Shown piece after piece: positions 4,164 to 24,603 of a DNA stretch of 64,000 nucleotides. This DNA is from an uncultured Anaerolineales bacterium. GTDB taxonomy: Bacteria > Chloroflexota > Anaerolineae > UBA7937 > B3-Chlor. The stretch's first letter is position 1. The number at the start of each line of letters is the position of its first letter. The notes beneath the pieces are model-generated. The model ran no database searches and had not been told where the DNA came from. It was given only the letters and a program-made list of their open reading frames with translations. The stretch is taken from NCBI GenBank assembly GCA_964492135.1, contig CAZBJW010000004.1, positions 294-64,293 of the forward strand, in the 5' to 3' direction. The position numbers and the translations under genes were made by a program.

Positions 4164-4317
4164 GGGATACTCGATCCCCCCTGGCCGGCCCTGACCCCAA
4201 CCGCTGCCACCTGCCAGTCACGTCGCTGCCCGGTCTGGACAGTTTTGTGGCTAACATGCCCCGCGGCCTGCAAGCCGAACTGGCCGACTACGACGAGGGG
4301 CAAGGTTGGATCGTCCT

Positions 4318-4859: not shown

Positions 4860-4915
4860 AACGTGTTTGTCAGCCGCTAACTGGTAGCAGAGTTATCGAA
4901 GCATGGAAAAGAAGG

Positions 4916-7279: not shown

Positions 7280-7336
7280 GAGAGTGCTCGATTCCGCCCC
7301 TTTGGCGGGGCCTGGCAGGCTGAAGACCCATGCCGA

Positions 7337-7672: not shown

Positions 7673-7687
7673 CTCTCCCCTGATGCA

Positions 7688-7716
7688 AGGATACCACATT
7701 TTGTGCCGCTTGTCAA
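7688..7716 (-). promoter_or_regulatory. Candidate sigma-70 promoter for the XRE/ImmA operon
   Basis: On the minus strand: TTGACA (7716-7711), 17 nt spacer, TGgTATCCT (-10 at 7693-7688). The -35 sits inside the palindrome CTTGT-TG-ACAAG. Confidence 0.45.
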
Positions 7717-7768
7717 CAAGACGTCGCTGTAATGGAGGGAATAGGCTGACTTTTAAGGTAAAAAGGGC

Positions 7769-7797
7769 TTGACAGATTAGCACATTCGTGCTATAAT
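7769..7797 (+). promoter_or_regulatory. Perfect consensus sigma-70 promoter (TTGACA-17-TATAAT with TGn extension)
   Basis: TTGACA at 7769-7774, 17 nt spacer ending in TGC, TATAAT at 7792-7797. Back to back with the minus-strand promoter. Reads into the ATG at 7820. Confidence 0.6.
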
Positions 7798-7819
7798 TGT
7801 GATGCTCTTCCACGAGACC

Positions 7820-8052
7820 ATGAACAGAAAAGACGAGATCCTTGAATTCATACGTGAGTTCCGAAACGCCATGGGCTATGCCCCCAGCTTCAGGGAGATC
7901 GTAGTTGGAACCTCGGTGGCCTCCACTCGACGGTCCACCGATATCTGGTGAGGTTGGAGGAGGACGGGCTCATCCGCCGGGCCAAGGAGACCGCTCGGTC
8001 CATCATATCCCTGGATGGGCAGGGGGCGTCTTCTTTTTGGCTCAGGATGTGA
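7820..8052 (+). pseudogene. LexA-N-terminal-type winged-helix repressor gene, split by a frameshift
   Basis: Frame 1 gives MNRKDEILEFIREFRNAMGYAPSFREI..., stopping at 7949-7951. The +2 frame continues LGGLHSTVHRYLVRLEEDGLIRRAKETARSIISLDGQG..., stopping at 8050-8052. Joined, the two pieces reproduce the LexA DNA-binding domain pattern. Confidence 0.5.
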
Positions 8053-8154
8053 CTCTCGTCCATAAAGGAGACGAAGCCAGAGCTTGTCATGGTAGAGCGG
8101 ACGTGTCGGAGCATGCTAGAGGAGTTCGATATCTTCTCTAGTTAGGAGGCGAGA

Positions 8155-10845
8155 GTGACCTTCGCAGATATCCAGGGGAGCAGATTGAACACTGAGGAGG
8201 ATCTACTCTTGGAAATCACCCCACCTCGCGACAACGAGCGGGATGCTGCAGCGGTGGAGGATATGCTGGCTGCCCTCTCGTTGAGCGAGCCCTTTTCCCT
8301 GGAAATCGCGGGCGAGGCGGGAAGGAAGCGCTTCCTGGCCAGGGGCTCAGCGCGGGCCATCGAGCATCTCCGGTCGCGCCTGGCGGGGATCTACCCTCAC
8401 GCTGGTTTGGAGGTGGTGAACCCCGCTCGGGAGCCCCGTCGGGACCCGGCCCGACCACGTCCAGGGGAGCGGGCTCTGACGATGGAACTCTATCTCCGGA
8501 CGGGTCCTCACCTCCCCATAAAGACCTATACCACCTACCAGGACGAAAGAGTTCGGGGCTCGGATCCACTCCTGGAAGTCCTCTCAGCATTGGGCGCTCG
8601 AGGACGAGCCCTGACTCAGTTGATCCTTAGACCGGCGCCAGACAACTGGTCGGAGAGGTACCTCGACCTGGCTCGCCAGCGCCATTGGCAGGAGCGGAAA
8701 GCCTCTCCTCGGGGGCAGGCCGCGGTGGGGATCTTCCTTCTAATGGTATTCTGGGCCCTGTTTCTCTTCTTGAGAGCCTTCTTCTGGTGGCTGGAGGGGC
8801 TGAGAGGCCATGCACTTCTGGCGGGGATGGCTCTCTTCCTGGGAGAGGTGGCCTTGTTCTATCCCCTGCGGTCTCTGACCCGAGAAGATGATCCCCAGAT
8901 CGTGCGGGAGAAGGTCCACCTGCCCGCCTTCGAGACCTGGCTACGGATCGCCACCTTCACGGAAGAGGTGGTGGAGTTGGAAGAGAGGATGTGGGACATT
9001 GTCTCAGCGTACAGGCTCTACAACCTGCCAGCTGGGAACGGCTTCCTGGCCAGAAAGGTGGCCTTCGACCCCACTGACATAGGTACAGACCCCCTGGCGA
9101 TCGATCTTCCCCTCTTGGGGAGGAATATCAGGTCCTGGTGGGCGAGAAAGCCAATCCTCAACGTCAGGGAGTTGGCCAGCCTGTGGCACCTGCCCCTGGG
9201 AGAGGTTGAGGTGCAGGGGCTGAGGCGTGCCCCCGCCCGAGTGGTTCTCCCTGTAACGGAGGTATCGGGGGAGGGGATCCTCTTGGGCCACTCGGTCCAT
9301 CAGGGCCGGCGAGTGGAGGTGCGGCTCCCCTTCGAGATCCTCCATCACAACATCTTCTTGGTGGGGAAGACCCAGCGGGGGAAGTCTAACCTGATGCAGC
9401 TCCTGGCGGAGGCGGCCTTGGCCGCGGGCGACCGGGCGGTGGTGGTGATCGATCCCCACGTGGACCTCGTTCGCTCACTGCAAGCTCGCATCCCACCCGG
9501 CCACGAGGAGCGGGTGATACTCATCGACCTCTTCGATCAAGACTCCCCGGTAGGGATCAACCTTCTGGAGTACCAGCAAGAGAGCCCCATCGACCGGGAC
9601 AAGGTGGTGGCAGACATCATCGACAGCTTCTCCGACATCTGGGTCCGCTTCTGGGGTCCTCGCATGGAGATCTACCTGAGGTGGGCGCTCCTGACCCTGG
9701 CCGAACATAACCGAACCGCAAAGCGGCAGATGACCATCCTGGAGGTCAACCTCCTTCTATCGGATGAGAGGTTCCGTGGGGATATCCTCCGCCAGATCAG
9801 GGATCCGGAGATCCACCGCTGGTGGCGGGAGGAGTACGAACCCCTCAGATTGAGACATTCCCGCTTCATGATGGAGGTCATCTCTCCCGTAAAGACCAAA
9901 ATCGACCGCTTCGTGGCCTCCAGGATCGCCAAGAACGTCCTGGGACAGCCTCGGTCAAGTGCAGACATCGGAAGGGCGATCCAAGACCGGAAGATCGTAC
10001 TGGTGAACCTGGCCTCAGGTCTGGTGGGGAAGGAGACGGCTTCTCTTCTGGGCTCGGCCATCTTGGATATTCTAGCTTCGGTCTTCCGCTATCAGGCGCA
10101 AGAGGAGAGACGGCGGCGAGCCCTGGCCACCGTGATCGTGGACGAGATCCAGGCCATCGAAGGATCGGGGAGGAAGTATAGGGAGTTCTTGCAGGAGCTT
10201 TCCAAGTTCGGCGCCAACGTGGTCCTGGGCACCCAGAGCCTGGCCATGATCGAGACGATGGAACCCGGTCTGAAAGGGGCCATCTTCGCCAATTCGAGCA
10301 CTCTGTTCCTCTTCGAGTCCAGTGCCGAGGACGCCCGCTATCTGGTTCATGAGTTGGATCGACCCGTCTCGGTAACCGATCTGACGAACCTGGGCCCCTA
10401 CCGTTGTTATGTCAAGACCATGATCAGCGGGGAGCGGATCCCGGTCTTCACCCTGGAGAGTCTCCCACCTCAACCAGGTTCTTGGGAGCAGGCGAAGCGA
10501 GTGCGAATGCTCTCCCAGAAGCACTATGGGCGCGATAGGGCTGAGGTGGAGGCGGAGAGAACGACCAGCATCCAAGAGCGCTACTACCCTGTGACCCTCC
10601 CCGTGGAGAAGGTGGTTGCCCAGGCGCCAGCCGGGTCACGCCCCTACCCCAACAATACACCCAGGGAGAAGACAGGAGCAGACGGCGATGCTGCGGAAGC
10701 GGCGGGCGAGGCGGTAGAGACTCCTCATCACGTAGGGGGCGCCTCCGCGGAGGCGGCTCTCGATGAGGAGCTCCGGCGTCTTAGGCGCAACCGGGCACGT
10801 CGCCAGCGAAGCAAGAAGAGCACGAATGATCGTTTCTCAGAATAG
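8155..10845 (+). CDS. Membrane-anchored P-loop ATPase of the TraD/TraG/VirD4 coupling-protein / HerA-FtsK type
   Basis: 896 aa. It has a soluble N-terminal region of about 190 aa and two TM helices (AAVGIFLLMVFWALFLFLRAFFWWL, ALLAGMALFLGEVALFYPL). Walker A is FLVGKTQRGKSNLMQ followed by VVVIDPHVDL. Walker B is ATVIVDEIQAI. Basic/acidic C-terminal tail. Confidence 0.6.
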   Translation: MTFADIQGSRLNTEEDLLLEITPPRDNERDAAAVEDMLAALSLSEPFSLEIAGEAGRKRFLARGSARAIEHLRSRLAGIYPHAGLEVVNPAREPRRDPARPRPGERALTMELYLRTGPHLPIKTYTTYQDERVRGSDPLLEVLSALGARGRALTQLILRPAPDNWSERYLDLARQRHWQERKASPRGQAAVGIFLLMVFWALFLFLRAFFWWLEGLRGHALLAGMALFLGEVALFYPLRSLTREDDPQIVREKVHLPAFETWLRIATFTEEVVELEERMWDIVSAYRLYNLPAGNGFLARKVAFDPTDIGTDPLAIDLPLLGRNIRSWWARKPILNVRELASLWHLPLGEVEVQGLRRAPARVVLPVTEVSGEGILLGHSVHQGRRVEVRLPFEILHHNIFLVGKTQRGKSNLMQLLAEAALAAGDRAVVVIDPHVDLVRSLQARIPPGHEERVILIDLFDQDSPVGINLLEYQQESPIDRDKVVADIIDSFSDIWVRFWGPRMEIYLRWALLTLAEHNRTAKRQMTILEVNLLLSDERFRGDILRQIRDPEIHRWWREEYEPLRLRHSRFMMEVISPVKTKIDRFVASRIAKNVLGQPRSSADIGRAIQDRKIVLVNLASGLVGKETASLLGSAILDILASVFRYQAQEERRRRALATVIVDEIQAIEGSGRKYREFLQELSKFGANVVLGTQSLAMIETMEPGLKGAIFANSSTLFLFESSAEDARYLVHELDRPVSVTDLTNLGPYRCYVKTMISGERIPVFTLESLPPQPGSWEQAKRVRMLSQKHYGRDRAEVEAERTTSIQERYYPVTLPVEKVVAQAPAGSRPYPNNTPREKTGADGDAAEAAGEAVETPHHVGGASAEAALDEELRRLRRNRARRQRSKKSTNDRFSE

Positions 10846-10892
10846 AGGAGGTCAAGGTCGAAGAGCATACCATCCGCAAGATCGAACTGGAG

Positions 10893-12734
10893 ATGCTGCA
10901 CTGGCTGATCAGCTATCCTCTGATGAGCGCTTACCAACTCGCGGTCGGGTTGGGTCTGGACTGGGGCTCAGTCAAGGGGTACCTGAGACACCTGGCGGAT
11001 GAACTGGGTTTCCTCGAACGGCTGTCATGTGCGGACCCCGGGCTTCGAAAAGGGGTGCAAGCCTACATCCCCACGGACGAGGGCATCAGGGCTCTCGCTC
11101 AGGAGCAGGGGCTATCCAATGTCCAGTGCGCCCGCCAGCACGGCCTGACTAAGGGCCGTCTCTATAAGATAATCAATAGCCTCCCCTTCTACTATGGATT
11201 GCGCACCTTCGTGGTTCGGCTGGGCGAAACGGCCCGCCGCCACGGGCAGATGGTGGCTCTCTTCGAGGAGGAGCCGCTGTTTCGCTTCATCAGGGGCGGC
11301 CGCGAGCGCCGTTTCCGCCCTGATGCCTTCTCGGTCTATCGGGCTGGAAATGCGGCCTATCCCTTCATCCTCTTGTGGGACGCGGGGTACGGTCGGGTCA
11401 GCCACTTCCGTGGAAGGGTGGATAGGCTCCATGACCTCAGGGAGGCGGATCGTTATCCCTTCCCGGCGAAATATCGCCGCTTTCCCGCCGTGGCTGTGGT
11501 GACTACCGATCGCTGGCGGCTTCTCGAGTGGCAGCGGATGGTGCGTCTTTCAGCCATTCGACGCCGGTCGGCGGAGGTGCAGCTCTATCTCACCCTGAGG
11601 CGTGACCTGCGCCCCGGGCCCGAGGGAGAAGAGTGGAACTTCTTCCGTCCCGTCTGGGTCGATGGAGCAGGGCAGAGGGTGCCCTTCTTGAATGGGGCTC
11701 CCTCTTTCCCTTGGGAGGAGTACCGCACTTTCCGGGAGGAGCGTCTCTCCCCCGGGGAGGCCCCTCGCCGGTCTCGTCGCAAGATCCTGGGCGATCCTCT
11801 CCTGGAGAAGGCTCAAGCGCTGAGGAACCTCTTCCCACGGGCAGGGGAAGAGGAGATCGCCCTGGTCAACCTGGCCCTGCGCCGCAGGGAGAAGGAGGTG
11901 CTCCTTTGGATCGGGGACCACCCGCTTCTCTCAGTGAGACTGCTGGCTCTCTTCATGGGGAACCGAGAGAGCACTATCCAGAGAGACATCCCCCGCCTGG
12001 CCAAGCTGGGCCTGATAGAACAGGCTGAGCCTCCAGATGGTTTCCAGGGCGAGGCCATGTACCTCTTGACCGATCAGGGTGTGAGGTGGCTGGTGAAGCG
12101 GCGGCGGGAAAAGCACCGAGCCTTCGTCCTACGCCACTGGCGACGGACGGTGAGGTGGATGCTGGTCCACCTTCGGCATACGCGAGCCCTCTACGAGTGC
12201 ATGGCCGCCTTCGCAGCCCCTGATCTCACAACCGGCCCTCCTGGTTCGTGCGGGTTGCACCTCTGGGAGAGCGAGTTTCGCACACACCGACGGTACGAGT
12301 ACCGGGGACTCAACCGGGTCTTCACCCCGGATGCGTATGGGGTTTTTCGACTTGGAGATCGTGGCTATCGCTTCTTCCTGGAGGTGGACAGGGATACCGT
12401 GCATGGGCGTTTACTGCAGAGAAAAGTAGAGAGTTACTATATCTTCCGGCGTAGCCGGGAGTTCGTGGAGCATGGCTTTGCTTTCCCTTCGGTCTTGGTG
12501 GTGACGACTACCCTGGGCCGGGCGAGAGGCATCCTCTCCACCTTCCAGCGAGTTGCCGGCTGGTTGGGTGTAGGGGTTCTCCCCCTCTACGTGACGACGC
12601 AGCAACTGGTCGCCGCCGAGGGCCCTCTGGCTCCCATCTGGCTTACACCGGCATCCAAGAACCCCGTCCACTGGTTGCCCATGGACAACCCTCCCGCTGA
12701 AGGGGAGGAAGACACCCGTGAGCCGCGTCGATGA
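10893..12734 (+). CDS. Tandem replication-relaxation (Replic_Relax-like) protein: two wHTH + nuclease-like repeats
   Basis: 613 aa. Repeat 1: LEMLHWLISYPLMSAYQLAVGL...FRPDAFSVYR...FILLWDAGYG. Repeat 2: EKEVLLWIGDHPLLSVRLLALFMG...FTPDAYGVFR...FFLEVDRDTVHGRLLQRKVESYY. The start is uncertain: the reading frame is open from 10830 and GAGGAGG lies at 10845-10851, but there is no canonical start before 10893. Confidence 0.6.
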   Translation: MLHWLISYPLMSAYQLAVGLGLDWGSVKGYLRHLADELGFLERLSCADPGLRKGVQAYIPTDEGIRALAQEQGLSNVQCARQHGLTKGRLYKIINSLPFYYGLRTFVVRLGETARRHGQMVALFEEEPLFRFIRGGRERRFRPDAFSVYRAGNAAYPFILLWDAGYGRVSHFRGRVDRLHDLREADRYPFPAKYRRFPAVAVVTTDRWRLLEWQRMVRLSAIRRRSAEVQLYLTLRRDLRPGPEGEEWNFFRPVWVDGAGQRVPFLNGAPSFPWEEYRTFREERLSPGEAPRRSRRKILGDPLLEKAQALRNLFPRAGEEEIALVNLALRRREKEVLLWIGDHPLLSVRLLALFMGNRESTIQRDIPRLAKLGLIEQAEPPDGFQGEAMYLLTDQGVRWLVKRRREKHRAFVLRHWRRTVRWMLVHLRHTRALYECMAAFAAPDLTTGPPGSCGLHLWESEFRTHRRYEYRGLNRVFTPDAYGVFRLGDRGYRFFLEVDRDTVHGRLLQRKVESYYIFRRSREFVEHGFAFPSVLVVTTTLGRARGILSTFQRVAGWLGVGVLPLYVTTQQLVAAEGPLAPIWLTPASKNPVHWLPMDNPPAEGEEDTREPRR

Positions 12735-13113
12735 TCCATCTTTCAGTATCCTCCGTTCATTCACCTTACTCATGGAGGCCAAATCGCCGGATCTGTATCT
12801 TCACTGCTTGAGGGTGGCCTCTCTGGCCGTTGCTCCAAGGCAGGCGCTCGATCTCTCGGAGAGCGCCCAGCTGGAACTGGAGGTGGGCGCGGGGCTTCAT
12901 GATCTGGGCAAGCTGGCCCTTCCCGACGCCATCATGGGCAAGGGGGAGAGCTTGGGCGAAGCGGAGATGGCTGCCATTCGGACACATCCTGAGTTGGGAG
13001 AGCGCATTCTCTCCCCGCTTCCAGTGGCGGACGAGGGGCGGAAGGTGGTCCACTGCCACCACGAGCGCATGAGTGGGGAGGGTTACCCCAGACGGCTTTG
13101 TCTTCACCGCTAA
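12718..13113 (+). pseudogene. HD-GYP domain fragment (truncated at both ends)
   Basis: HCLRVASLAV...GLHDLGKLALPDAIMGKGESLGEAEMAAIRTHPELGERIL...HCHHERMSGEGYP. There is no sensor or receiver part upstream, and the sequence ends 7 codons after GYP. Confidence 0.6.
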
Positions 13114-13480
13114 AACGCCGAACGAGATCACCCATGAGCACCACCTGACTAACGCTCTGAGGGCCTTATATCAATTTCTGAGAGTGATGAGTCATCTTGG
13201 GGGGAGACAAGCTGGGACCTATTCTCATGCAGCTCCCTCCTACTGTGCACTTTGGCTACAGAAACCCACTGGAGGGATTCCTTGCGGGGTTGCCGCGCGA
13301 TCAGGAGTTCGCTGTCGAATTTCGAGATGACTTTGGGTCCAAGAGGATGTCTTTGAACTGCTGCGGCATCACGGCGTTGCCTGGTGCATCACAGATACCG
13401 ACCTGATACCGGCCATCCCCGAGATCACCGCTGACTTCACCTACATACGTTGGATCAGGGATCGTCGCGCGCGAGTAGGA
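13085..13480 (+). pseudogene. DUF72-family gene remnant, N-terminally truncated and frameshifted
   Basis: Pieces in three frames: PDGFVFTAKTPNEITHEHHL...LYQFL / DKLGPILMQLPPTV...EFAVEFRD / EDVFELLRHHGVAWCITDTD...ITADFTYIRW. These are classic DUF72 motifs. Confidence 0.6.
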
Positions 13481-13821
13481 TCCCGTCGTGGGAAGATCGA
13501 TCCTGATCTCACACCTGGTTGCCCCTTTCAATCGCGGGGTGGTAAAATATACCATGCCAAGGCCACTAGATGGAACGGGCACCAGGGGCGCCGAGCGTAG
13601 CTCTCCCCAAGTCTGTCTGGCCAATTGTAACCTGGGGATGGCCTTTTCTCTAGACTTCGAGGTGTGCAAAGGGATGCCTCGTTCCTCACTTGCCTGCCGT
13701 TGGTTCAAGTGACTCGCTATAACGAGAGGACGTGACCTAGGCACCTTGGTGGGGGGTCACACCTGCGGGTAGTGTCGCTTATCCTGACCTGCCGCGCCCA
13801 TAACAACCGCACCTTCAAACC

Positions 13822-13849
13822 TTGACCTTGGGACGGGTTCAGCTATACT
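13822..13849 (+). promoter_or_regulatory. Candidate promoter of the vapB-like gene
   Basis: TTGACC (13822-13827), 16 nt spacer, TATACT (13844-13849). Followed by a small inverted repeat, GGCTA-n5-TAGCC. Confidence 0.4.
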
Positions 13850-13890
13850 CTACATTGGTGGCTAGACTATAGCCGCAGAAGACGCACGAA

Positions 13891-14172
13891 GTGGCAAGCG
13901 TTAGGAAATTGTCATCCAAGGGGCAAGTAGTCGTCCCTGAGGATCTAGGCCGCCAGTATGGGATTGATTCGGGCCATCTCCTGATGGTAGAAGACAGTGA
14001 AGGTGGCATCCGAGTCTTGCCCTTGCCCAAAGATCCCTTGAGAGCGATCGCTGGCCGTCTTGCCGGGAAGCCAGGACTAGAGGTTCTTAAGGGCGAACGG
14101 GAGCGGGAGCTAAAGGCAGACGAGGAGAGAACCCAGCGCCTAGCAGGGAAGCGAGAGTCAACTACCCCATAG
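13891..14172 (+). CDS. AbrB/SpoVT-type antitoxin (VapB-like)
   Basis: 93 aa, GTG start. The N-terminus VRKLSSKGQVVVPEDLGRQYGIDSGHLLMVEDSEGGIRVLP is a swapped-hairpin AbrB fold signature. Confidence 0.7.
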   Translation: MASVRKLSSKGQVVVPEDLGRQYGIDSGHLLMVEDSEGGIRVLPLPKDPLRAIAGRLAGKPGLEVLKGERERELKADEERTQRLAGKRESTTP

Positions 14173-14493
14173 ATAAATCCAGGGGCTTGTCCCTGGCGCC
14201 ACAGGAGGTCCTGTGTCCGAGACGTATGGCTGGTTGACAACAGCCCGACGGAGAATATCCGCCGCGAGTTACAGGCTAAGCCTGACGCCGAGGGTTTTAC
14301 CCGCACAGCGATTCGTGTGCAGAACCCGTTACCTCCGCTTGTTAAGGTGCAAAAGCCGTTTCTCCGCCGTGCGGAGTGCCTTGCGACCCTACAAACAGTA
14401 TAGGACAAATTTGCTAACTTTGCAAAAAAGGAGAATCGCGGCGCTCCTCCCCACACCTGAAAGAGGGGGTATCCGCGCCCGAAAGGATTTCCG

Positions 14494-14870
14494 ATGAGAG
14501 AGGTGTTGCACGGCAGCTCCCTGGTGGCCCTCATCCACAAACAGGCTGGCTATACTATGTCTACCGCCTGATTGAACGGGCCCAGGAGGGAGACGCGGAT
14601 ATCTACTTCTCTGAAATTGACTATGGTGAGATCCTCTACGTTGTGGCCAGAACGGGGGGAACAAAGGAACTTGAATATCACAGACGAGTCCTTCCAGCGC
14701 TTCCAATCACCCTTGTGCCGGTAGATCGTGCGCTGATTGAGCGAGGTGCAGAGATCAAAGCGTTGCCAGGCGGTGCTTTCCTAGAGGCGATCTGTGCTGC
14801 CCTGGCTGAGCGGCTTGATGCTACTGTGGTGACTGGGGACCAAGGGTGTCAAAAAACGAGACCGGGTTGA
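14494..14870 (+). pseudogene. PIN-domain toxin (VapC-like), frameshifted and separated from its antitoxin
   Basis: MREVLHGSSLVALIHKQAGY runs to a stop at about 14569. The -1 frame continues YRLIERAQEGDADIYFSEIDYGEILYVV...LPITLVPVD...AICAALAERLDATVVTGDQG. The first catalytic Asp position reads His/Gly. Confidence 0.6.
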
Positions 14871-14871
14871 A

Positions 14872-16407
14872 GTGGACACTGGCAAAGCAGACCAAAAGCC
14901 CGTAGGAGTTGGTGTGACCAGAACGGCAATCAAGAGATTTCTCAGCCCAGGCGAAACCCTTTCTCAGCAGGTGGTCCGCGGCGGCTTCTGGGTGTTCGCA
15001 ATCCGGATCGTGTCACGGCTCTTCAGCCTGGCGCGCACTATTGTGCTGGCTCGGCTGCTTGCGCCGAAGGATTTCGGACTGTTCGGGATCGCGCTTCTCG
15101 CGATGTCTGCTCTGGAGACGTTCTCACAGACGGGGTTTCAGCAGGCGCTCGTCCAGAAGAAGAGGGCCATAAGACCCTATCTGGACACCGCCTGGACAGT
15201 CCAGGCGATCCGTGGGGCAGCCCTGGCATTTATTCTCTTTGGGATTGCCCCCTATGTGGCGGTGTTCTTCGGCGAGCGAACGGCCGCAGCACTACTGCGC
15301 GTGTTGGGGCTCTCGATGCTCTTTCAGGGCTTCGCCAACATCGGGGTCGTCTACTTCCAAAAGGAACTGGAGTTTCACAAGCAGTTCGTTTACCAGCTGA
15401 GCGGCACTTTGGTGGATCTTGTGGTAGCAATCACCGCCGCTCTTCTGCTCCGGAACGCTTGGGCGCTCGTCTTCGGGCTCTTGGCCGGGAACCTCGTGCG
15501 GACAGTGGCGTCATACTTGATTCACCCTTATCGGCCGAGATTGCGGTTGGAAGGAGCGAGAGCGAAGGAGTTGTATGACTTCGGGAGATGGATATTAGGT
15601 TCGAGTGTGCTTGTATTCCTCACTACTCAGGGCGACGACATCTTCGTAGGAAAGTTGCTTGGTGTGACAGCACTCGGTTTCTATCAGTTGGCTTACCGAA
15701 TCTCAAATATGCCAGCAACAGAGATAACGCACGTAATTTCGCAGGTAACATTCCCAACTTACTCGAAGCTACAAGATGACCTTTCCAAACTAAGGGAAGG
15801 CTATTTGAAAGTGCTGCAGGTTACAGTCTTTATCTCCGCACCACTAGCAGGAATGATTTTTGTCCTGTCTCGCGAATTCACTCACCTATTTCTAGGAGAA
15901 AAATGGATGCCAATGGTGCCGGCAGTGCAGGCGCTGGTGTTGGCCGGTTTGGTAAGGTCAGTAGTAGCGACAACGGGTCCGGTATTTCAGGGGGTTGGAA
16001 AGCCACAAATAGAAACGAAGGGGCACATACTCCGATTATCGGTGTTGGCAATCTCAATCTATCCCCTAACTGTTCGGTGGGGAATAGTGGGTGCCTCGGT
16101 CAGTGTATTCTTAAGTATCCTCGTGTCCGCCATTGGGTTTAGTTATATGACGGTAAGGATTACCAAGTGTGGAATTAGAGAGTTTAGTAAAGCGGTGGTA
16201 CCCCCATTGATAAATGCGCTAATTATGATTTGGCTAATATACCTCCTTAAGATTAAGGTGGGTGCGGTTGGAATTCTGGGATTTACCCTGCTTGCCGCTA
16301 TAGGTGGGGTCAGCTATCTTGCCGTAGCATCTCTCTTAGATCGGTTCTCAAATTATAGGATGCACTCACTAATAAGAGAATCTTTATCGGCACTCCGAGG
16401 GAATTAA
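14872..16407 (+). CDS. Wzx-type oligosaccharide flippase (MOP/PST family), copy 1
   Basis: 511 aa polytopic protein. N-terminal signature ARTIVLARLLAPKDFGLFGIALLAMSALETFSQTGFQQALVQKK. Confidence 0.8.
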   Translation: MDTGKADQKPVGVGVTRTAIKRFLSPGETLSQQVVRGGFWVFAIRIVSRLFSLARTIVLARLLAPKDFGLFGIALLAMSALETFSQTGFQQALVQKKRAIRPYLDTAWTVQAIRGAALAFILFGIAPYVAVFFGERTAAALLRVLGLSMLFQGFANIGVVYFQKELEFHKQFVYQLSGTLVDLVVAITAALLLRNAWALVFGLLAGNLVRTVASYLIHPYRPRLRLEGARAKELYDFGRWILGSSVLVFLTTQGDDIFVGKLLGVTALGFYQLAYRISNMPATEITHVISQVTFPTYSKLQDDLSKLREGYLKVLQVTVFISAPLAGMIFVLSREFTHLFLGEKWMPMVPAVQALVLAGLVRSVVATTGPVFQGVGKPQIETKGHILRLSVLAISIYPLTVRWGIVGASVSVFLSILVSAIGFSYMTVRITKCGIREFSKAVVPPLINALIMIWLIYLLKIKVGAVGILGFTLLAAIGGVSYLAVASLLDRFSNYRMHSLIRESLSALRGN

Positions 16408-17866: not shown

Positions 17867-18673
17867 ATGGCCGCTCTGAGAGAGCTGATCGAATACAGGG
17901 AGTTGATTAGGAATCTCGTGTTGCGAGATCTTAAGGTTCGATACAGGAACTCCGTTCTTGGCTTCCTCTGGTCACTGCTCAATCCGCTGGGCATGATGGT
18001 CGTGTTCACCGTGGTGTTCACCATTATGCTGCCTCAAAACGCCGTTGATCGTTTCCCCTTGTTCGTCTTGTGTGCTCTCCTCCCTTGGAACTTCTTTTCG
18101 AGCAGTGTCATGACCTCCATTCATAGCATCGTAGGTAATGCCCACCTGATCAAGAAGGTGTACTTCCCCCGAGAGGCTCTTCCTATCTCCACAGTATTGG
18201 CCAACCTAGTCAACTTCCTCTTGGCCCTCATAGTTCTTTTCGCCATGATGCTCGTCCTCAAAACTCCGCTAACTGCATGGGCTCTGCTTCTTCCGGTAAT
18301 AATCTTCGTCCAGCTGATCTTCACTCTGGGTCTGGCCTTGATCCTCTCCACTCTCAATGTCTTTTACCGCGATACCGCGGCCGTCATGGATGTAGCCATG
18401 CTGGCCTGGTTCTTCCTTACGCCGGTTTTCTATCCTATCACCATCCTGCCTCGCTATCGCACTCTCTTCGGACTCTCCCTCGACATTCAACGGTTGGCCT
18501 ACATTCTAAACCCTATGGCCTCCCTTATCGCCTCCTATAGGGTGATTCTCTATCATGGCGCTCCTCCTGCTTTCGACTTCCTGGCTAGGACCATAGTCAC
18601 CTCTTGCGCGGTTCTGGCGCTGGGCTACCTGCTCTTTGCCCGTTATAGCAGGAACTTCGCTGAGTACCTCTAA
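17867..18673 (+). CDS. wzm: ABC-2 type polysaccharide export permease (Wzm/TagG/KpsM-like) with no adjacent ATPase
   Basis: 268 aa. N-terminus ELIEYRELIRNLVLRDLKVRYRNSVLGFLWSLLNPL, plus six TM segments. No Wzt-like ABC ATPase ORF follows. Confidence 0.8.
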   Translation: MAALRELIEYRELIRNLVLRDLKVRYRNSVLGFLWSLLNPLGMMVVFTVVFTIMLPQNAVDRFPLFVLCALLPWNFFSSSVMTSIHSIVGNAHLIKKVYFPREALPISTVLANLVNFLLALIVLFAMMLVLKTPLTAWALLLPVIIFVQLIFTLGLALILSTLNVFYRDTAAVMDVAMLAWFFLTPVFYPITILPRYRTLFGLSLDIQRLAYILNPMASLIASYRVILYHGAPPAFDFLARTIVTSCAVLALGYLLFARYSRNFAEYL

Positions 18674-18725
18674 TCTGACATACGCTCCATTTGCCCTTTA
18701 CAGAGAGGCCCTTAGGGTAAGTCTA

Positions 18726-18850
18726 GCAACCCTGTGGCTAGAGCCTACTACCTGAAGAAGATCGCCGAGGGCAAGAGCAAGGGCTCTGCCTCTCCAAGCA
18801 ACTGGACACAAAGAGCCAATCCTTGAAAACATACTTTCATATTGACATAG
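18726..18850 (+). mobile_element. IS110-family transposase C-terminal remnant
   Basis: NPVARAYYLKKIAEGKSKGSA, then after a frame change LCLSKQL..., resembles the conserved IS110 C-terminal block (YY..K.AEGK...A). No intact transposase ORF. Confidence 0.4.
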
Positions 18851-19428
18851 GGCGCCTGGTAGATGAGTTGAATCATGATTGGGGCCTACGCCCCAACAGA
18901 TGATCCGCCTTTCTCTCGGGCCTGCATATCGGCGCAGGCCTCAACTAGCCTCAAGAGATCACTTAGGCTCTCTACCATGCCCGTCCTGGTCGACTTGGGC
19001 CAGGGAGGGAGATTCTACTCACTTGACTTCGTATGTTGAACCCAGTATGAACCATCTGGTAGAGCCCAAGGACTCCCCCTAAAACCCTGAAGACTTCGTC
19101 CTGAGCTCAGTCCGAAGGAAGTGGTCACGATGTCTTGGCTCACCTACGAATCTCTTCTTGCCTCCCATCATCTTATACGTAAAGTATCCCTGTGGGAGAC
19201 GATACAATCACTCTCCTAGAGGGTGGTACCGAGGTCTCTGAATATTACGGGTATCGGCTTGCAAAGCGATAGTCAGGGTGAGGGGACGCCAATCTGCTAG
19301 GCCAGATCAGATCGTCATAGGCAGACGCTTCACACCTGCAAGCAACCTGACTCCAATTGAATAAAAGAGCACGAAGGATTGGCTTCCATCAGGAAAGCCG
19401 TTTTTCTCGGGAGCCTGATTCAAACCCC

Positions 19429-19868
19429 TCACTGCCCAATCTCAAACGCCACTCTAACCTGAGGATGGTATAGTTTAGTTGGTAGTCGCGCTGAGGTAGT
19501 CTCGTCCCCGCGAAGGAATGATAAGCGGCGCACCCCCACGCATAGGAGCGTGTCCTGCGGCCAATTCTCCTGCGCTGGAGAGGCCATTATCGTGTTGTAG
19601 TGAGCTCCGATGGGGTAGTCGAGGAGACTCCACTGCCGCCGCATCTCTGCCTTCTCATAGTGGCAGCCCCCAAAAAGGCCCTTCACCATGATTCGCCAAG
19701 AGGAGATAGTAGGAGTAGCCGGCATTCATAGCCACAGCGGAGCAGGCACAGTATGGAAGAAGAACCGCGTGCGATGGAAGTAGAGTTTCAGGAGACGGTC
19801 CGAGAGCTGGCCAGAACACAGTGGTAGTTCAGATTGTAGACGCTAGTTACGGTCTTGTGGGCTTTCAT
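19429..19868 (-). mobile_element. IS200/IS605- or RAYT-like Y1 transposase remnant, frameshifted
   Basis: The minus strand from ATG 19868 gives MKAHKTVTSVYNLNYHCVLASSRTVS then a stop (YH.V motif). A downstream ORF in another frame contains GLFGGCHYEK...LLDYPIGAHYNTIMASPAQENW, which is weakly RAYT-like. Confidence 0.3.
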
Positions 19869-20120
19869 GACCCAATTCTAGCACAAATGTTCCAATTGCG
19901 CAAGTTGGACGGGGAGAATTCGCCCTCCTTGGGGCCCGATGCCCGAAGGGGAACAGCGAAATTCATTTCCCCGTCTGGAGGCAGGGTGTCCTCTTGCGCA
20001 TTTTCTATAGCTTGCTCACCTCGCATATTGCGGCTTGGGCCTTCCTCCTTGACGCGCGTCGGGGCATGTTAGGCTTTATGTACCGTTGTTAGCCGTTGCC
20101 CGTACTTGAAATTGATGCTC

Positions 20121-20149
20121 TTGACAAATTCGTCAAGTCGTTGTATAGT
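20121..20149 (+). promoter_or_regulatory. Near-consensus sigma-70 promoter with an operator-like palindrome over the -35
   Basis: TTGACA (20121-20126), 17 nt spacer, TATAGT (20144-20149). Inverted repeat TTGAC-n6-GTCAA at 20121-20136. Confidence 0.55.
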
Positions 20150-20212
20150 ATACGATAATCTTTCCCGGCGGCTCCACAGTGAGGGAGCGAGAAGATTTGA
20201 GGCGGTCGACCA

Positions 20213-20965
20213 ATGGCCCGGTTCCGTTTTCTACTAGCACGCTTCAAACCCACCACTCTTCTTCCCCTGAGTGACTTGCTACTGGTGAACCTCGCTATTC
20301 TCTTGGCTTTACGGCTATGGGCCCTGAGAGATGGCCAAGAGGCATTCGGGTGGGATTTTGTCCTTTTCCAGGCTCACTGGTTCTTGGGGCTGTCAGGCCT
20401 ATGGCTCTTGATGGCTGTAATCTTGGGCTTGTACACGGCGAGGACGCGTTCCAAGGCGGCGAACAGTCTATTGGCGCTTCTGGGGATCACTGGCTTGTTC
20501 CTGCTTGCATATGTTGTGGTTTATTTCTTTGCGCCGGTTGGTATACTGCCCCGGCGTTTCGCGCTTGAGGCCGGCGTCGTCTCTTTGGTTCTTGTCGGCC
20601 TGTGGCGAGCGGCCTACATCGCCATCTCCACCGGTCTCATCCTCGCTCGGTCGGCCTCCGCTGAGCAGAGGGGTGGGGTGACGGAGCTCGTCCGCAAGGT
20701 CCTCCGCGAGACCTTTGCTTCTGACGGCCAACAGGTGAGCGAGGCCCCCTCCGTCCCTCTTGAGGGCCGAGACGTCGAGGAGAATCTCTATACCGTGCAG
20801 GAGGTGGCCGAGCTCCTCAAAGTGCATGAGGCCACCGTCTGGCGGTGGTGTCGGAGCGGCGATCTGCGGGCCTTCCGGGTGGGCCAGCAGTGGCGGATTG
20901 CGGCCAGCGACCTGCACAGGCTTATGGACGCCAAGACGGAGATGAGATCTGGTAGAGAGTCTTGA
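20213..20965 (+). CDS. Fusion protein: WbaP-type N-terminal 4-TM domain + C-terminal excisionase/MerR-type HTH
   Basis: 250 aa. Residues 1-150 align with the N-terminal membrane domain of the sugar transferase starting at 62799: FVLFQAHWFLGLSGLWLL...LVLVGLWRAAYIAI versus FVLSQAHWFGILIALWLL...LVLLGLWRGAYTVL. The C-terminus is LYTVQEVAELLKVHEATVWRWCRSGDLRAFRVGQQWRIAASDLHRLM. Confidence 0.7.
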   Translation: MARFRFLLARFKPTTLLPLSDLLLVNLAILLALRLWALRDGQEAFGWDFVLFQAHWFLGLSGLWLLMAVILGLYTARTRSKAANSLLALLGITGLFLLAYVVVYFFAPVGILPRRFALEAGVVSLVLVGLWRAAYIAISTGLILARSASAEQRGGVTELVRKVLRETFASDGQQVSEAPSVPLEGRDVEENLYTVQEVAELLKVHEATVWRWCRSGDLRAFRVGQQWRIAASDLHRLMDAKTEMRSGRES

Positions 20966-21181
20966 GTCCGCAGAGTGACTGCATTGGGGTGGAAGATCTC
21001 CTCGCAGTGGGAATTCGGCAAGTGATGGCCTGACGAAGTTTAGATGATGAGGAGAGCAGGAGGATGAACCAGATCGTCACTGTATGTGCGATCGGTTATC
21101 GATTCAGACTCGAGGAGGTAAAGCTGGCTTGGAAGACATTACCGTCTTAAGGACAGGTGGTTTCTAACCTTTTGGGGGATC

Positions 21182-21670
21182 ATGGAACATTGGTACGCTT
21201 TATACACCAAGCCACATAAAGAACGGCAGCTTAGTAGCTTCCTGGAACACAGGGGGTTCGAGACCTATCTTCCCCTCATCCAGGTTAGGAAGCGCGGCCA
21301 AGAAAAGAGTATCCCCTTCTTCTCTTGCTATCTCTTCGTCCGCGTGGGCTCCTCTAACGGCCTTCCCTCTCTGCGCTGGATCCCTGGCCTGAGAAGAATT
21401 GTCACCTTTGGCGACCAACCGGCCCTGGTTGACGAACATCTGATCTCTTTTATCAAACGGCGCCTAGCCGATATACAGGAATCGGGCTGCACAGCGTATC
21501 GGTTCAAGCCAGGCGATCGGGTAGCCATAACCTCTGGCCCCTTGAGAGATTTTGAAGCGATCTTCGACGACAAGTTGTCTTCTCGGGGCCGGGCGAGGAT
21601 CTTAGTAGATTTCCTCGGTCGATGGACGCGCTGTGAAGTAGAGACCCACTGCTTGGAGAGGGTGCGCTAG
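21182..21670 (+). CDS. Specialised NusG paralog (RfaH/LoaP/UpxY-like antiterminator)
   Basis: 162 aa. NGN domain: WYALYTKPHKERQLSSFLEHRGFETYLPLIQV...CYLFVRV. KOW domain: FKPGDRVAITSGPLRDFEAIFD. Sits at the head of a long glycan operon. Confidence 0.85.
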   Translation: MEHWYALYTKPHKERQLSSFLEHRGFETYLPLIQVRKRGQEKSIPFFSCYLFVRVGSSNGLPSLRWIPGLRRIVTFGDQPALVDEHLISFIKRRLADIQESGCTAYRFKPGDRVAITSGPLRDFEAIFDDKLSSRGRARILVDFLGRWTRCEVETHCLERVR

Positions 21671-21710
21671 GGCGTACTTCGGCCAATGGGGAAAACTGAA
21701 TAAGAGTCAG

Positions 21711-21739
21711 CAGTGCTTGCCGTCCAAGAGCAAGCACTG
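21711..21739 (+). promoter_or_regulatory. Perfect 10-bp stem hairpin in the operon leader
   Basis: CAGTGCTTGC-cgtccaaga-GCAAGCACTG with no U-tract. Followed at 21743-21753 by GGCGGAGCCTG (ops-like). A second hairpin, GTGAAAGT-gta-ACTTTCAC, lies at 21879-21897. Confidence 0.35.
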
Positions 21740-22056
21740 AACGGCGGAGCCTGCCAGGAGATCGTCAGAGTTCCCCAAACGATTCCTTGCGAAGACGCTG
21801 CCAGCTATCAAGCTCAAAATCTGACTCAGTGGTACTTGCCAAGAAGCCCTGGAACTGTCTCTCTTTTCATTGGACGTAGTGAAAGTGTAACTTTCACAAG
21901 TTTACCCTTGCGGAAGTTGTGGCCACCTGCTGGGTAGAAAGTTCGGCAATCGACCCTTCTGCAGGGTGCGGCCACCAGGGGGTGGTAAGTGAAGGTCACC
22001 GAGGGCCAGGGCGGGGGTGCCGGACTGCGTTGCTGTTCGGATAGGAGGCTAAGCCA

Positions 22057-23055
22057 TTGACGGTGTGTCTCGTCACCGGTGTCGCCGGCTTCATTGGCTC
22101 TCATCTGGCGGAGCGGCTGATCCGTGAGGGTAATCATGTGGTAGGCATCGATTGCTTCGCTGACTACTATCCACGGTGGATGAAGGAGTGCAACCTGGAG
22201 AATCTGCAGGGACATGAACGGTTCACCCTCATTGAGGCCGACCTGCTTGACCTAAACCTGGCAGCCTTTCTGCGGAGTAGGCTTTGGATGGAGACCGAGC
22301 CGACAGCGGCCGTAGACTATGTTTTTCACCTCGCCGCCCAACCCGGCGTCCGGGCATCCTGGACCAGAAATTTCGAAGTCTACGCCCGCAACAATGTCTT
22401 GGCTACGCAGCAGCTCTTGGAGGCAGTGAAGGAGACGAAGCTAAAGAAGTTCGTCTATGCGTCATCCTCTTCCGTGTACGGCGATGCGGAGAGCTTCCCC
22501 ACGCCGGAGGATGTGACGCCCCGGCCGATCTCCCCCTATGGCGTCACCAAGTTGGCCGGGGAGCACCTATGTTGGGTCTATTGGCGTAATTACAGCGTGC
22601 CTGTGGTAGGCCTGCGATATTTTACTGTGTATGGGCCGCGGCAGCGGCCGGACATGGCTTTCCACTGCTTCATCCGGGCGATGCTGGAAGGACAAGAGAT
22701 CGTGGTCTACGGTGATGGCGAGCAAACACGGGACTTCACCTACGTGGCCGATGCGGTGCAGGGGACGGTGCAGGCAGCGTTCAGCGACGCCATGGGGGAG
22801 ATCTTCAATATCGGAGGCGGCTCACGCGTGACGGTGAACGAGGCGATCCAGCTGCTGGAAAGCATCACCAGCCAGTCAGCACGCGTGCGCTACGAGGGAG
22901 CGCAGAGGGGGGACGTGCGGCATACAAAGGCCGACATTCGTAAAGCTGCCCTGGCTCTCGGCTACGAGGCGAACACCAGATTGGCGGAAGGGCTGGTGCA
23001 GGAGGTGGACTGGGTTCGGCGGATCTCACGGGTCGTTGGATCGTCCGCGAGGTAG
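22057..23055 (+). CDS. NAD-dependent nucleotide-sugar epimerase/dehydratase (extended SDR)
   Basis: 332 aa with VTGVAGFIGSHL, SSSSVYG and the catalytic YGVTK. GGAGG lies 8 nt upstream of the TTG start. Confidence 0.85.
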   Translation: MTVCLVTGVAGFIGSHLAERLIREGNHVVGIDCFADYYPRWMKECNLENLQGHERFTLIEADLLDLNLAAFLRSRLWMETEPTAAVDYVFHLAAQPGVRASWTRNFEVYARNNVLATQQLLEAVKETKLKKFVYASSSSVYGDAESFPTPEDVTPRPISPYGVTKLAGEHLCWVYWRNYSVPVVGLRYFTVYGPRQRPDMAFHCFIRAMLEGQEIVVYGDGEQTRDFTYVADAVQGTVQAAFSDAMGEIFNIGGGSRVTVNEAIQLLESITSQSARVRYEGAQRGDVRHTKADIRKAALALGYEANTRLAEGLVQEVDWVRRISRVVGSSAR

Positions 23056-23058
23056 AGG

Positions 23059-23466
23059 TCGACTATAAGGACATATCTCTTCCCGGGCCGAGGTGGTGAG
23101 GGCCACATCGCACGTCAGCAGATGGGGAGGAGGCTGAAGCAGTACGTGGAGAAAGCGAATTTGCCGGGACATGTGAGCCCGCACACCTTGCGCCACTCAG
23201 CAGCGGTGCACTATTTGATAGGAGGCGCTCCCATCACCTTCGTGCAGAATCTTCTGGGGCATGAGAGCTTGGCCATCACGGGGATATACACCCAACGGGT
23301 GGACGAGATGGCCAAGGAGATCGCTCTAAACACTAAGACGGCCATCGACGAGATCGAGGCGGCGGAGCAGGGGGAGCTCTTGAAAGAGGCGACAGAGGCG
23401 TACAAGGCGGAATTGGAGGGGTGGGATGACTTTGTGGGCCAGGTGCTGGAGTGGTTGGGAACCTAG
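23059..23466 (+). pseudogene. Tyrosine recombinase (phage integrase family) C-terminal fragment
   Basis: Begins right after the epimerase stop codon. [73 protein letters not shown] carries the HxxR, the second His and the catalytic Tyr. The N-terminal core-binding and Arg-I regions are absent. Confidence 0.7.
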
Positions 23467-23622
23467 CTTGCCGAACTTGGCAAGATTCATTGAGCGGCAC
23501 TTGCGGAAGTTTAGCGTAAGGCGGAGTTGGATCGGGCTCCCATGCACGAGTGGGATCATTTTCAGTTTAACTCAGGCGCAATCAGATCTATCGGGCTACG
23601 TCGTTGAGGAGGCCAAAAGATT

Positions 23623-24603
23623 GTGAAAAGGGCGTTAATTTGTGGCGCGGGTGGTTTCATCGGCGGGCACCTGGTGAGGAAACTCAAGCGCGAGGGCTAC
23701 TGGGTGCGCGGCGTGGACATTAAGGAGCACGAGTTTGCGCCCACGGCGGCCGATGAGTTCCTGCTGCTCGATCTGCGGGAACCGGGGAACTGCCGGGCGG
23801 TGCTGACGCTGGACGATGGGACCTTCGACGAGGTGTACCAGTTGGCGGCGGATATGGGGGGCATGGGCTTTATCTCTGTCGCTGAATGCGAGGTCTTGCG
23901 CAATAATGCCTTGATCAACATCCACATGACCCACACGGCGGCGACGATGGGCATTCCAAGGTATTTCTTCTCCTCGTCCGTTTGTGTCTACCGGGATATG
24001 CAACCCGGTGAGCCGGAGATGACTGAGGACGAGGCCATCCCGGCGAACCCGGACAACGAGTACGGCTGGGAGAAACTCTACGCCGAGCGCGTAGGTCAGG
24101 CTTACGGGCGGCGCTACGGCATGAACGTAAGGATTGCCCGGTTCCAGAATTGCTACGGCCCAGAGGGTACGTGGACCGGAGGCCGGGAAAAAGCCCCGGC
24201 GGCGATTTGCCGCAAGGTGGCTGAAGCGGAAGACGGCGGCACGATTGAGGTGTGGGGCGATGGCACGGCCATTCGTTCCTATACCTACGTGAGCGATATG
24301 CTGGATGGCATCTACATGCTGATGCAATCCGACCTGGAAAGCCCGGTCAACATTGGTTCCCCAGAGTACGTCCCGGTGGCCGAACTGGTGGCGACGGTGA
24401 TTGAGGTATCGGGCAAGAGGATCAACGCGAAGTATGTTGAAGGCCCCGTTGGCGTGCAATCGCGAAACTTCAGCAACGAGCGCATTTGCTCGATTGGATG
24501 GCGCGCCAAGGTGTCTCTGAGAGAGGGGACTGGGCTCATGTATCCGTGGATCGAGGCACAGGTGAAGGCGCAGCGAGCGCGTGAGCGTGAGGGTAAGATG
24601 TGA
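23623..24603 (+). CDS. GDP-mannose 3,5-epimerase-like SDR
   Basis: 326 aa. Family-specific blocks are QLAADMGGMGFI, PDNEYGWEKLYAE, RFQNCYGPEGTWTGGREKAPAAICRK, WGDGTAIRSYTYV and GPVGVQSRNFSN. They follow the plant GME sequence closely. Confidence 0.8.
   Translation: MKRALICGAGGFIGGHLVRKLKREGYWVRGVDIKEHEFAPTAADEFLLLDLREPGNCRAVLTLDDGTFDEVYQLAADMGGMGFISVAECEVLRNNALINIHMTHTAATMGIPRYFFSSSVCVYRDMQPGEPEMTEDEAIPANPDNEYGWEKLYAERVGQAYGRRYGMNVRIARFQNCYGPEGTWTGGREKAPAAICRKVAEAEDGGTIEVWGDGTAIRSYTYVSDMLDGIYMLMQSDLESPVNIGSPEYVPVAELVATVIEVSGKRINAKYVEGPVGVQSRNFSNERICSIGWRAKVSLREGTGLMYPWIEAQVKAQRAREREGKM

Follow-up and report, generated by a model that had tools for sequence, protein, structure and literature searches.

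What does a membrane domain related to glycan-priming enzymes do in front of a DNA-binding domain, and why is such a protein encoded at the head of a polysaccharide locus? The question is raised by a gene in a 64,000-nucleotide (nt) stretch of DNA from an uncultured Anaerolineales bacterium (hereafter the window), where positions 20121-20965 hold one promoter and one open reading frame (ORF), the latter at 20213-20965 on the + strand and encoding 250 amino acids (aa). A preliminary description of the DNA had seen here a WbaP-type membrane domain fused to an excisionase-family helix-turn-helix (HTH), and had proposed a membrane-tethered DNA-binding regulator. BLASTP, profile-profile comparison and HTH_17 matches bear out the fusion, and the proposed reading came through checks of topology, profile homology and conservation. 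On balance, we take the product of this gene, which stands at the head of polysaccharide loci in Anaerolineae, to be a one-component transcription regulator that is tethered to the membrane and probably controls its own expression. From its N terminus, the protein consists of four transmembrane (TM) helices, a variable linker of ~40 aa and a C-terminal HTH_17 winged helix:

20213-20656, + strand: four-TM-helix module (aa 1-148), homologous to the N-terminal bundle of large monotopic phosphoglycosyl transferases (BLASTP, profiles, hydropathy and AlphaFold2 [AF2] model)
20657-20779, + strand: variable, probably flexible cytoplasmic linker (aa 149-189; low predicted local distance difference test [pLDDT] score, ratio of nonsynonymous to synonymous substitution rates [dN/dS] and family alignment)
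20780-20932, + strand: HTH_17 winged helix-turn-helix of the BldC/excisionase type (aa 190-240; Pfam, PDB profile search and Foldseek)

The excisionase-family assignment of the C-terminal domain agrees with two models above their cut-offs: Pfam HTH_17 (PF12728) matches aa 192-240 with 64.9 bits (cut-off 27, E 8e-18) and the NCBIfam model "excise" (TIGR01764, excisionase family DNA-binding) gives 49.4 bits (cut-off 28.8, E 4e-13). In the AF2 model, the elements of the winged helix (strand 192-194, helices 195-202 and 206-215, strands 220-223 and 226-230, helix 231-246) have pLDDT values of 72-79. A profile search of the PDB found BldC (6amk/6ama, E 8e-6) and also Pukovnik Xis, and the Foldseek scores (TMt, the target-normalised TM-score) were 0.77 for BldC, at 33% identity, and 0.79 for Pukovnik Xis, with RacA and RdfS next. 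The regulator is not itself a member of the BldC family, scoring 26.6 bits against a cut-off of 77 with the NCBIfam BldC model NF033787. The similarity to BldC matters for the likely mode of DNA binding, as BldC forms head-to-tail oligomers on tandem direct repeats using only its winged helix (PMC5859096). Between E197 and L234, 23 columns are invariant in the family of the regulator, and the family-invariant R211 in "TVWRW" aligns with the Arg of the BldC motif "TVTRW"; assuming a 3-residue tag offset in the numbering of the PDB chain, we infer that the latter is the guanine-contacting Arg30 (PMC5859096). The same HTH_17 subtype (LTVQEVADYLKVS..TVWRWC..G.LPAF) is frequent in Anaerolineae, where it either makes up a gene of its own (~70 aa) or forms the N terminus of proteins of ~900 aa; the large protein and the HTH are separate genes in locus L012 (9998-10237; 10292-12589) and fused in L013 (9902-12619).

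The N-terminal part (aa 1 to ~150) matches no Pfam family specific to this stretch, and its kinship was found through a phosphoglycosyl transferase (PGT) encoded near the end of the window:

62799-64000, + strand: large phosphoglycosyl transferase consisting of a four-TM-helix bundle (4TMH), PF13727 and Bac_transf, cut by the window end (Pfam, BLASTP and TIGR03025)

With its CoA_binding_3 (PF13727) and Bac_transf (PF02397) domains and a TIGR03025 score of 298.6 bits, which reaches the cut-off, this protein has the architecture of a large monotopic PGT (Lg-PGT). The regulator is 38% identical to it over aa 15-171 (157 residues; BLASTP, E 7e-25), and a tblastn search of the window with the regulator gave 43% identity over aa 14-135. 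The window contains three PGTs, as had been noted earlier, namely two Lg-PGTs (52224-53639 and 62799 onward) and one small PGT (46266-46949), and only the enzyme at 62799 is similar to the N-domain of the regulator. Its 4-TM bundle is the closest paralog of the membrane module, and this enzyme is a candidate partner. The similarity to WbaP-type domains was upheld by profile comparison: a profile of the family N-domains aligned to one of 21 PGT N-domains with a hhalign probability of 100% (E 7e-40, 128 columns), and the motifs D-x3-VN, HWF, LWLL, YFFAP..LPR and GLWR are common to the regulator family and the PGTs. The NCBIfam Lg-PGT models match the family solely via their own N-terminal part, TIGR03025 with positions 1-116 for the window protein and TIGR03023 (WcaJ) for a PAS-containing variant, P0035.

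Lg-PGTs, which have been described as a 4-TM bundle, a domain whose function is unknown (DUF) and a catalytic core (PMC10942596), include WbaP, WcaJ and CpsE. The regulator retains a homologous bundle with its conserved motifs and differs from them in what follows. The PF13727 DUF, the cytosolic Rossmann-like part, is not matched in the window protein, and in P0035 only the TM3-TM4 stretch matches it (profile positions 2-68); a Pfam search likewise found no catalytic Bac_transf (PF02397) domain with its re-entrant helix. With both the DUF and Bac_transf missing, the regulator cannot be a transferase and is not a PGT. The pair of 4TMH and DUF is also reused in PglF-like dehydratases (PMC10942596), and the regulator is a third setting in which the 4TMH occurs, the first in this analysis to lack the DUF.

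The topology places the HTH where it could meet DNA. The hydropathy profile has four maxima (near aa 26, 65, 97 and 130), and the N-terminal tail carries a net charge of ~+3 (24 family members). An even number of helices puts the C terminus on the same side as the N terminus, and in the WbaP structure the domain after the 4-TM bundle is cytosolic and caps the cytosolic loops of the bundle (PMC10942596). The positive-inside rule and the homology to the Lg-PGT bundle together indicate that the HTH is probably cytoplasmic. The AF2 model has long helices at aa 13-39, 47-70, 82-106 and 114-153 and the winged helix at 192-246; between them, aa 151-189 are disordered with pLDDT below 50, and both the length and the sequence of this linker differ among family members.

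Among four close relatives we computed dN/dS separately for the three regions of the protein and obtained 0.09-0.28 for the HTH (aa 190-240), 0.37-0.56 for the membrane module (aa 1-148) and 0.86-1.8 for the linker (aa 149-189). As the ratio differs sharply by region, the protein consists of two constrained domains under purifying selection joined by a freely evolving tether. A word-indexed search found 33 clusters at the 90% identity level, 43-100% identical to the regulator and nearly all of 225-290 aa with HTH_17. In an exhaustive profile search of 1.84 billion representatives (50% identity), the full-length architecture was present in only ~8-10, the remaining hits being N-termini of Lg-PGTs or HTH_17 domains alone. 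Short hits confined to the 4TMH were considered as stand-alone 4TMH proteins and rejected, as they were truncated Lg-PGTs with the start of PF13727. Among GTDB species genomes, the full-length gene is present in three metagenome-assembled genomes, all from Anaerolineae or Anaerolineales, and all named sources of the family are Anaerolineae. Its members carry generic public names such as "helix-turn-helix domain-containing protein" and "excisionase family DNA binding protein". One subclade has a longer form (P0035, 369 aa) in which the 4-TM module is followed by a PAS domain (aa 169-282) at the position of the linker and then by HTH_17. This order of input, sensor and output is, to judge from the domains, the layout of a one-component signalling protein and argues against an incidental HTH. 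In another member (P0018, 243 aa), the C-terminal 70 residues are replaced by the +1 frame of the HTH-coding region, reflecting either a frameshift mutation or an assembly error.

If the HTH binds DNA, its target may lie directly upstream of the gene, where three features were identified:

20068-20098, + strand: three 10-bp-phased direct repeats (GTTAGGCTTT / ATGTACCGTT / GTTAGCCGTTG), candidate operator, with CGTTG cores at 20084 and 20094
20121-20149, + strand: sigma-70-type promoter, TTGACA (20121-20126), 17-nt spacer and TATAGT (20144-20149), with 11/12 consensus positions
20150-20212, + strand: 5' leader, almost unchanged in the four loci of the close clade, with the Shine-Dalgarno sequence GAGG at 20199-20202

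The ORF starts with the ATG at 20213, and the GAGG 10 nt before it serves as the ribosome-binding site. The near-consensus promoter reported in the preliminary description is real and conserved, the -35 hexamer being the same across four related loci: in L002, L003 and L008, both this hexamer and the spacer end, "AGTCGTTGTATA", are invariant, and L068, from a clade at ~50% protein identity, has a near-identical promoter, CTTGACAAATTCG...TATAAT, at the same place. The upstream non-coding region as a whole shows 88% mean column identity, compared with a dS of 0.29-0.51 in the adjoining coding sequence. The same description had placed the -35 hexamer within a palindrome, TTGAC-n6-GTCAA. The palindrome is present; as an operator we rejected it, for its right arm (20132-20136) varies in L002, L003 and L008 and the window contains 90 such 5-n6-5 palindromes, no more than the chance expectation.

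The phased CGTTG repeats are, on sequence grounds, the better operator candidate. They lie at about -88 to -58 relative to the predicted transcription start, and an extra CGTTG (20139-20143) stands in the promoter spacer and abuts the -10 hexamer; within the window, the repeat motif pair was found at this site only. Phased CGTTG/YGTTG repeats, in 2-4 copies and always on the coding strand, precede the gene in the majority of the subclades examined (L002-4, L008, L010, L005-7, L009, L063 and L066), and looser versions do so in L001 and L068. Defining a strict run as at least three YGTTG at 9-11 nt spacing, we found four runs in the family loci, each just 5' of the gene, and none on either strand in 1.55 Mb of controls comprising 52 unrelated loci, including loci with stand-alone Anaerolineae HTH_17 genes. 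The stand-alone genes of L011-L013, whose products are 43-50% identical to the HTH of the regulator, had no phased CGTTG runs. The repeats fit the HTH because its nearest solved relatives are BldC-DNA complexes and BldC binds tandem direct repeats, and by analogy we infer that the HTH recognises them, with the difference that the repeat core is CGTTG here and AATT-N4-C in BldC (PMC5859096).

In more distant clades, further elements surround the repeats. A sequence CCGTATCTTT(T)-N13/14-CGTTATA stands directly 5' of them in every distant clade: in L005 (3533-3570), L009 (322-360), L001 (9718-9755), L010 (2909-2945), L063 (9847-9880) and L068 (422-460); its spacing and CGT-type downstream box are reminiscent of promoters for extracytoplasmic function (ECF) sigma factors, and inspection by eye of the window upstream region gave no clear counterpart. 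Between the repeats and the start codon, a leader element GGCCGGCACA-N10-TGTGC...GGTCTGGCGGAGCCTGCC occurs in L005 (3925-3975), L001 (9845-9915), L009 (530-575) and L010 (3062-3112). Its GGCGGAGCCTG core resembles the E. coli ops/JUMPstart sequence, GGCGGTAGCGTG, and by this analogy the element could be a loading site for the NusG paralog discussed below. The close clade has GGCGGCTCCACAGTG, at 20165-20179 in the window. An Rfam search of 18600-23700 at a permissive E-value returned two chance-level hits only, with no JUMPstart/ops and no riboswitch.

What the regulator could control is suggested by the genes next to it. The preliminary description had the gene followed by a NusG paralog, and an ORF with PF02357 is indeed found there, flanked by conserved non-coding DNA:

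20966-21181, + strand: conserved non-coding spacer from the regulator gene to the NusG paralog (83% mean column identity among the window, L002, L003 and L008)
21182-21670, + strand: specialised NusG paralog (RfaH/UpxY/LoaP-like), conserved partner gene (Pfam PF02357, E 2e-14)
21671-21913, + strand: conserved part of the leader 3' of the NusG paralog, end of the head module (blastn)

The best NCBIfam matches of the NusG paralog are RfaH (96.6 bits) and UpxY (66 bits), both under the cut-off. Together these elements form a head module of ~1.9 kb (20007-21913) that blastn aligns at 81-83% identity, from 20007 to 21767-21913, with L002, L003, L004 and L008, and synteny is lost on both of its sides. 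In these four loci, the close clade, the regulator gene is followed by ~220 nt, the ortholog of the NusG paralog and then variable glycan genes. The non-coding stretches 20966-21181 and 21671-21913 are ~81-83% identical across the same loci, as strongly conserved as the coding parts, and may hold further regulatory DNA or RNA elements.

In every locus examined, the fusion gene has glycan genes as neighbours, namely those for an RfaH/UpxY-like NusG paralog, for Wzz or for Wzy. Orthologs of the NusG paralog stand beside or near it in L002-4, L008, L063-65 and L068. In the PAS clade (P0035), the order is an OmpR-type response regulator, the 4TMH-PAS-HTH gene, Wzz after a 5-nt gap and an overlapping NusG paralog; L005/6 have Wzy 5' and Wzz directly 3' of the fusion gene, and L001 has Wzz 3 kb downstream. 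The window itself is a large glycan locus with Wzz/BY-kinase, Wzx, an ABC-2 transporter, many sugar-nucleotide enzymes, glycosyltransferases, Wzy and the three PGTs.

These observations are consistent with the following mechanism. The cytoplasmic winged helix, on its linker of ~40 residues, would assemble head-to-tail in the manner of BldC on the phased CGTTG repeats at the promoter of the head module and thereby set the transcription of its own gene and of the RfaH-like NusG paralog. The latter would be the antiterminator needed for read-through of the long glycan operon, and the regulator would act on the operon through it. The 4-TM module would receive the signal, through pairing with Wzz or with the related bundle of the Lg-PGT at 62799, or through binding of the lipid ligand that this bundle binds. 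It would so determine whether the tethered HTH assembles on the DNA, and expression of the locus would track the condition of the assembly machinery in the membrane. The outcome may be activation or repression, the repeats being at an activator-like position (-88 to -58) and one CGTTG abutting the -10 hexamer.

Several observations weigh against a membrane-tethered regulator acting in this way. Confidence in the AF2 model is modest (mean pLDDT 64), and a Foldseek search of the PDB with the whole model matched the HTH part alone, with no credible match for the membrane part. The family profile did not reach the WbaP chain in the PDB by sequence either, and the link to WbaP-type proteins is for this reason drawn from Anaerolineae Lg-PGTs and the TIGR03025 and TIGR03023 profiles. 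The dN/dS of the TM module is just moderately low, and the family is narrow, occurring in one class of Chloroflexota. The position of the repeats relative to the putative promoter varies among clades, so that the regulatory logic may not be a single one: in the window and L068 they lie 5' of the -35, and in L005, L009, L010, L001 and L063 they come after a different conserved element, CCGTATCTTTT-N13/14-CGTTATA, which may itself be a promoter. Finally, the repeats could belong to another factor, as OmpR-type Trans_reg_C regulators are also direct-repeat binders and their genes stand 5' of the regulator in L002, L003 and L063. A tblastn search found no OmpR-type regulator gene in the upstream 1.5 kb of the window gene.

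Other roles can be envisaged for a protein of this composition. It could act after translation as a modulator or scaffold of the priming complex, its 4-TM module pairing with an Lg-PGT, Wzz or Wzy to tune priming or chain length, and its HTH serving protein contacts, for example with the NusG paralog, or being secondary. In WbaP, the 4TMH provides a dimer contact via helix 3 (PMC10942596); the membrane module resembles only one of the two window Lg-PGTs, Wzz lies directly 3' of the gene in several clades, and PGTs are known to be regulated by protein partners (PMC12802240). Against this role, constraint is strongest in the HTH (dN/dS of 0.09-0.28 and 23 invariant columns), the HTH retains the Arg aligned with the DNA-contacting Arg of BldC, and a conserved repeat element accompanies the gene. 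We regard the modulator role as unlikely to be the explanation; it is compatible with a membrane-tethered regulator, of which it would be the input half.

The protein could also bind DNA without regulating transcription in the usual sense. As an architectural tether, similar to RacA, it would anchor the DNA of the glycan locus at the membrane such that the many membrane proteins of the locus are made beside the membrane, with no classical on/off role. The best structural matches of the HTH include RacA and Xis, which are architectural MerR-like winged helices, multiple phased repeats suit a filament-like binding, and the protein is permanently membrane-bound and has a long flexible linker. The PAS variant and the promoter position beside an antiterminator gene point instead to signal-dependent regulation, and each locus has only one small cluster of repeats. 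We give the architectural role a slim chance.

A further possibility is suggested by the excisionase family (HTH_17) to which the HTH belongs. The protein could be a recombination directionality factor for the tyrosine recombinase found beside the NusG paralog in related loci, directing the exchange or inversion of glycan cassettes. In L002, L003 and L004, tyrosine recombinase genes that are intact come after the NusG paralog; in the window, the variable gene block has a recombinase remnant on either side (23068-23466 and 58020-58133), and synteny breaks directly after the head module. On the other hand, there is no recombinase near the gene in L001, L005/6 and L063, and in the window the recombinase survives only as a dead fragment, although the fusion gene there is complete and under constraint. 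The repeats stand at the promoter of the gene itself and not at a recognisable att-like junction, though att sites were not sought. We also know of no recombination directionality factor with a membrane anchor, and consider this role distinctly improbable. That the gene is a functionless, decaying remnant of a duplicated PGT gene joined by chance to an HTH can hardly be right, since nothing speaks for it except that the 62799 PGT is a paralog and that one copy (P0018) is frameshifted, while the full-length architecture is kept across clades down to ~43% identity, purifying selection acts on both domains, and conservation extends to the promoter, the leader and the neighbourhood; a pseudogene or recent rearrangement was rejected on the conservation and dN/dS, the fusion being present in many metagenomes and in three GTDB genomes of Anaerolineae, in glycan neighbourhoods.

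Returning to a membrane-tethered transcription regulator, its parts and its logic can be placed among known systems. In membrane-bound one-component regulators, a membrane or envelope signal acts directly on a promoter, and the general logic of ToxR, TcpP, CadC, TfoS and ChiS, with a DNA-binding domain at the membrane that relays such a signal, is alike. Proteins of the ToxR/CadC class have an N-terminal DNA-binding domain of OmpR or AraC type, usually one TM helix and a periplasmic sensor. In contrast, the order is reversed in the regulator, with four TM helices first and the HTH last, the HTH is of the excisionase/BldC type, there is almost no periplasmic mass, and the membrane module is borrowed from a biosynthetic enzyme. 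The regulator works like the ToxR/CadC/TfoS class but is not a member of it, as both the types and the order of the domains differ. The C-terminal domain has the same fold and family (HTH_17 / MerR-like winged helix) as Streptomyces BldC (6AMA/6AMK) and Xis, and the tandem 10-bp direct repeats upstream of the gene recall the tandem direct repeats bound by BldC, to which binding here would be analogous. BldC and Xis are small soluble proteins of 55-70 aa, whereas here the domain forms the C-terminal end of a 250-aa polytopic membrane protein.

The arrangement of the locus also has precedents. RfaH/ops and the Bacteroides UpxY/UpxZ systems likewise have a specialised NusG paralog at the start of a glycan locus and, paired with it, a small regulator gene specific to the locus. 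UpxZ, a soluble protein that inhibits heterologous UpxY proteins, is not known to be a membrane or DNA-binding protein; the regulator differs from it in being anchored in the membrane and carrying an HTH.

We found no paper, curated family or source annotation describing the fusion, including in the literature on membrane-bound excisionase-type regulators and on HTH_17 with transmembrane segments, in agreement with the earlier remark that no regulator of this type had been described. The membrane-tethered transcription factor is of a known kind and its input module is unprecedented. It adds a new layout to the short list of such factors, and with it the BldC/Xis-type winged helices, known until now from small proteins that are soluble, also occur in an integral membrane protein. 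What the accessory domains of Lg-PGTs do has been stated to be unclear (PMC10942596). That the 4-TM bundle alone is kept under selection and joined to a DNA-binding output, once with a PAS domain between them, argues for a self-sufficient interaction or sensing module and not a mere anchor for catalysis. Tentatively, and with more doubt than for the regulator itself, we suggest that the Lg-PGT bundle is in general an autonomous sensing or docking module, for undecaprenyl phosphate, lipid-linked intermediates or the Wzz/Wzy/PGT complex, that in Anaerolineae has been wired to a BldC-type DNA-binding domain. If true, this would be the first case in which the lipid-carrier or priming stage feeds back directly on transcription of a glycan operon and of the antiterminator dedicated to it, and the fusion would be a natural "Rosetta stone" giving a function to the accessory membrane domain of the most abundant PGT class. 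The system is concrete and testable, with one small gene, a promoter, a repeat element and a candidate partner enzyme all in one locus; as the family is confined to uncultured Anaerolineae, its practical impact is limited for now.

The wider locus shows signs of rearrangement. Two tyrosine-recombinase remnants, at 23068-23466 (+ strand; a C-terminal fragment of 114 aa) and 58020-58133 (- strand), bracket a variable glycan block of ~35 kb, and intact recombinase genes stand right after the NusG paralog in L002 (5519-6487 and 8241-8669) and L003 (7606-8589). As the remnants bracket the block and intact genes occur at the same place in relatives, this suggests that site-specific recombination swaps glycan cassettes while the head module in front of them stays constant. 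L002 (1959-2396) and L003 (5034-5387) have, 5' of the fusion gene, another copy of the NusG paralog that is more divergent (40-48% identity), accompanied by short Trans_reg_C (OmpR-type) ORFs, neither of which is present in the window.

Further upstream, between the genes for Wzz/BY-kinase (98-1696, - strand) and the Wzx flippase (14872-16407), lies an apparent integrated mobile element (2267-14540) with an S24/LexA-like repressor (2267-2974), a HerA/TrwB-like ATPase (8155-10845) and a Replic_Relax protein (10893-12734). The ~1.3 kb from the ABC-2 transporter gene to the head module (18674-20006) contains no convincing ORF and no Rfam match; within it, ~18943-19093 resembles the DNA 3' of the NusG paralog in L002, which suggests rearranged remnants.

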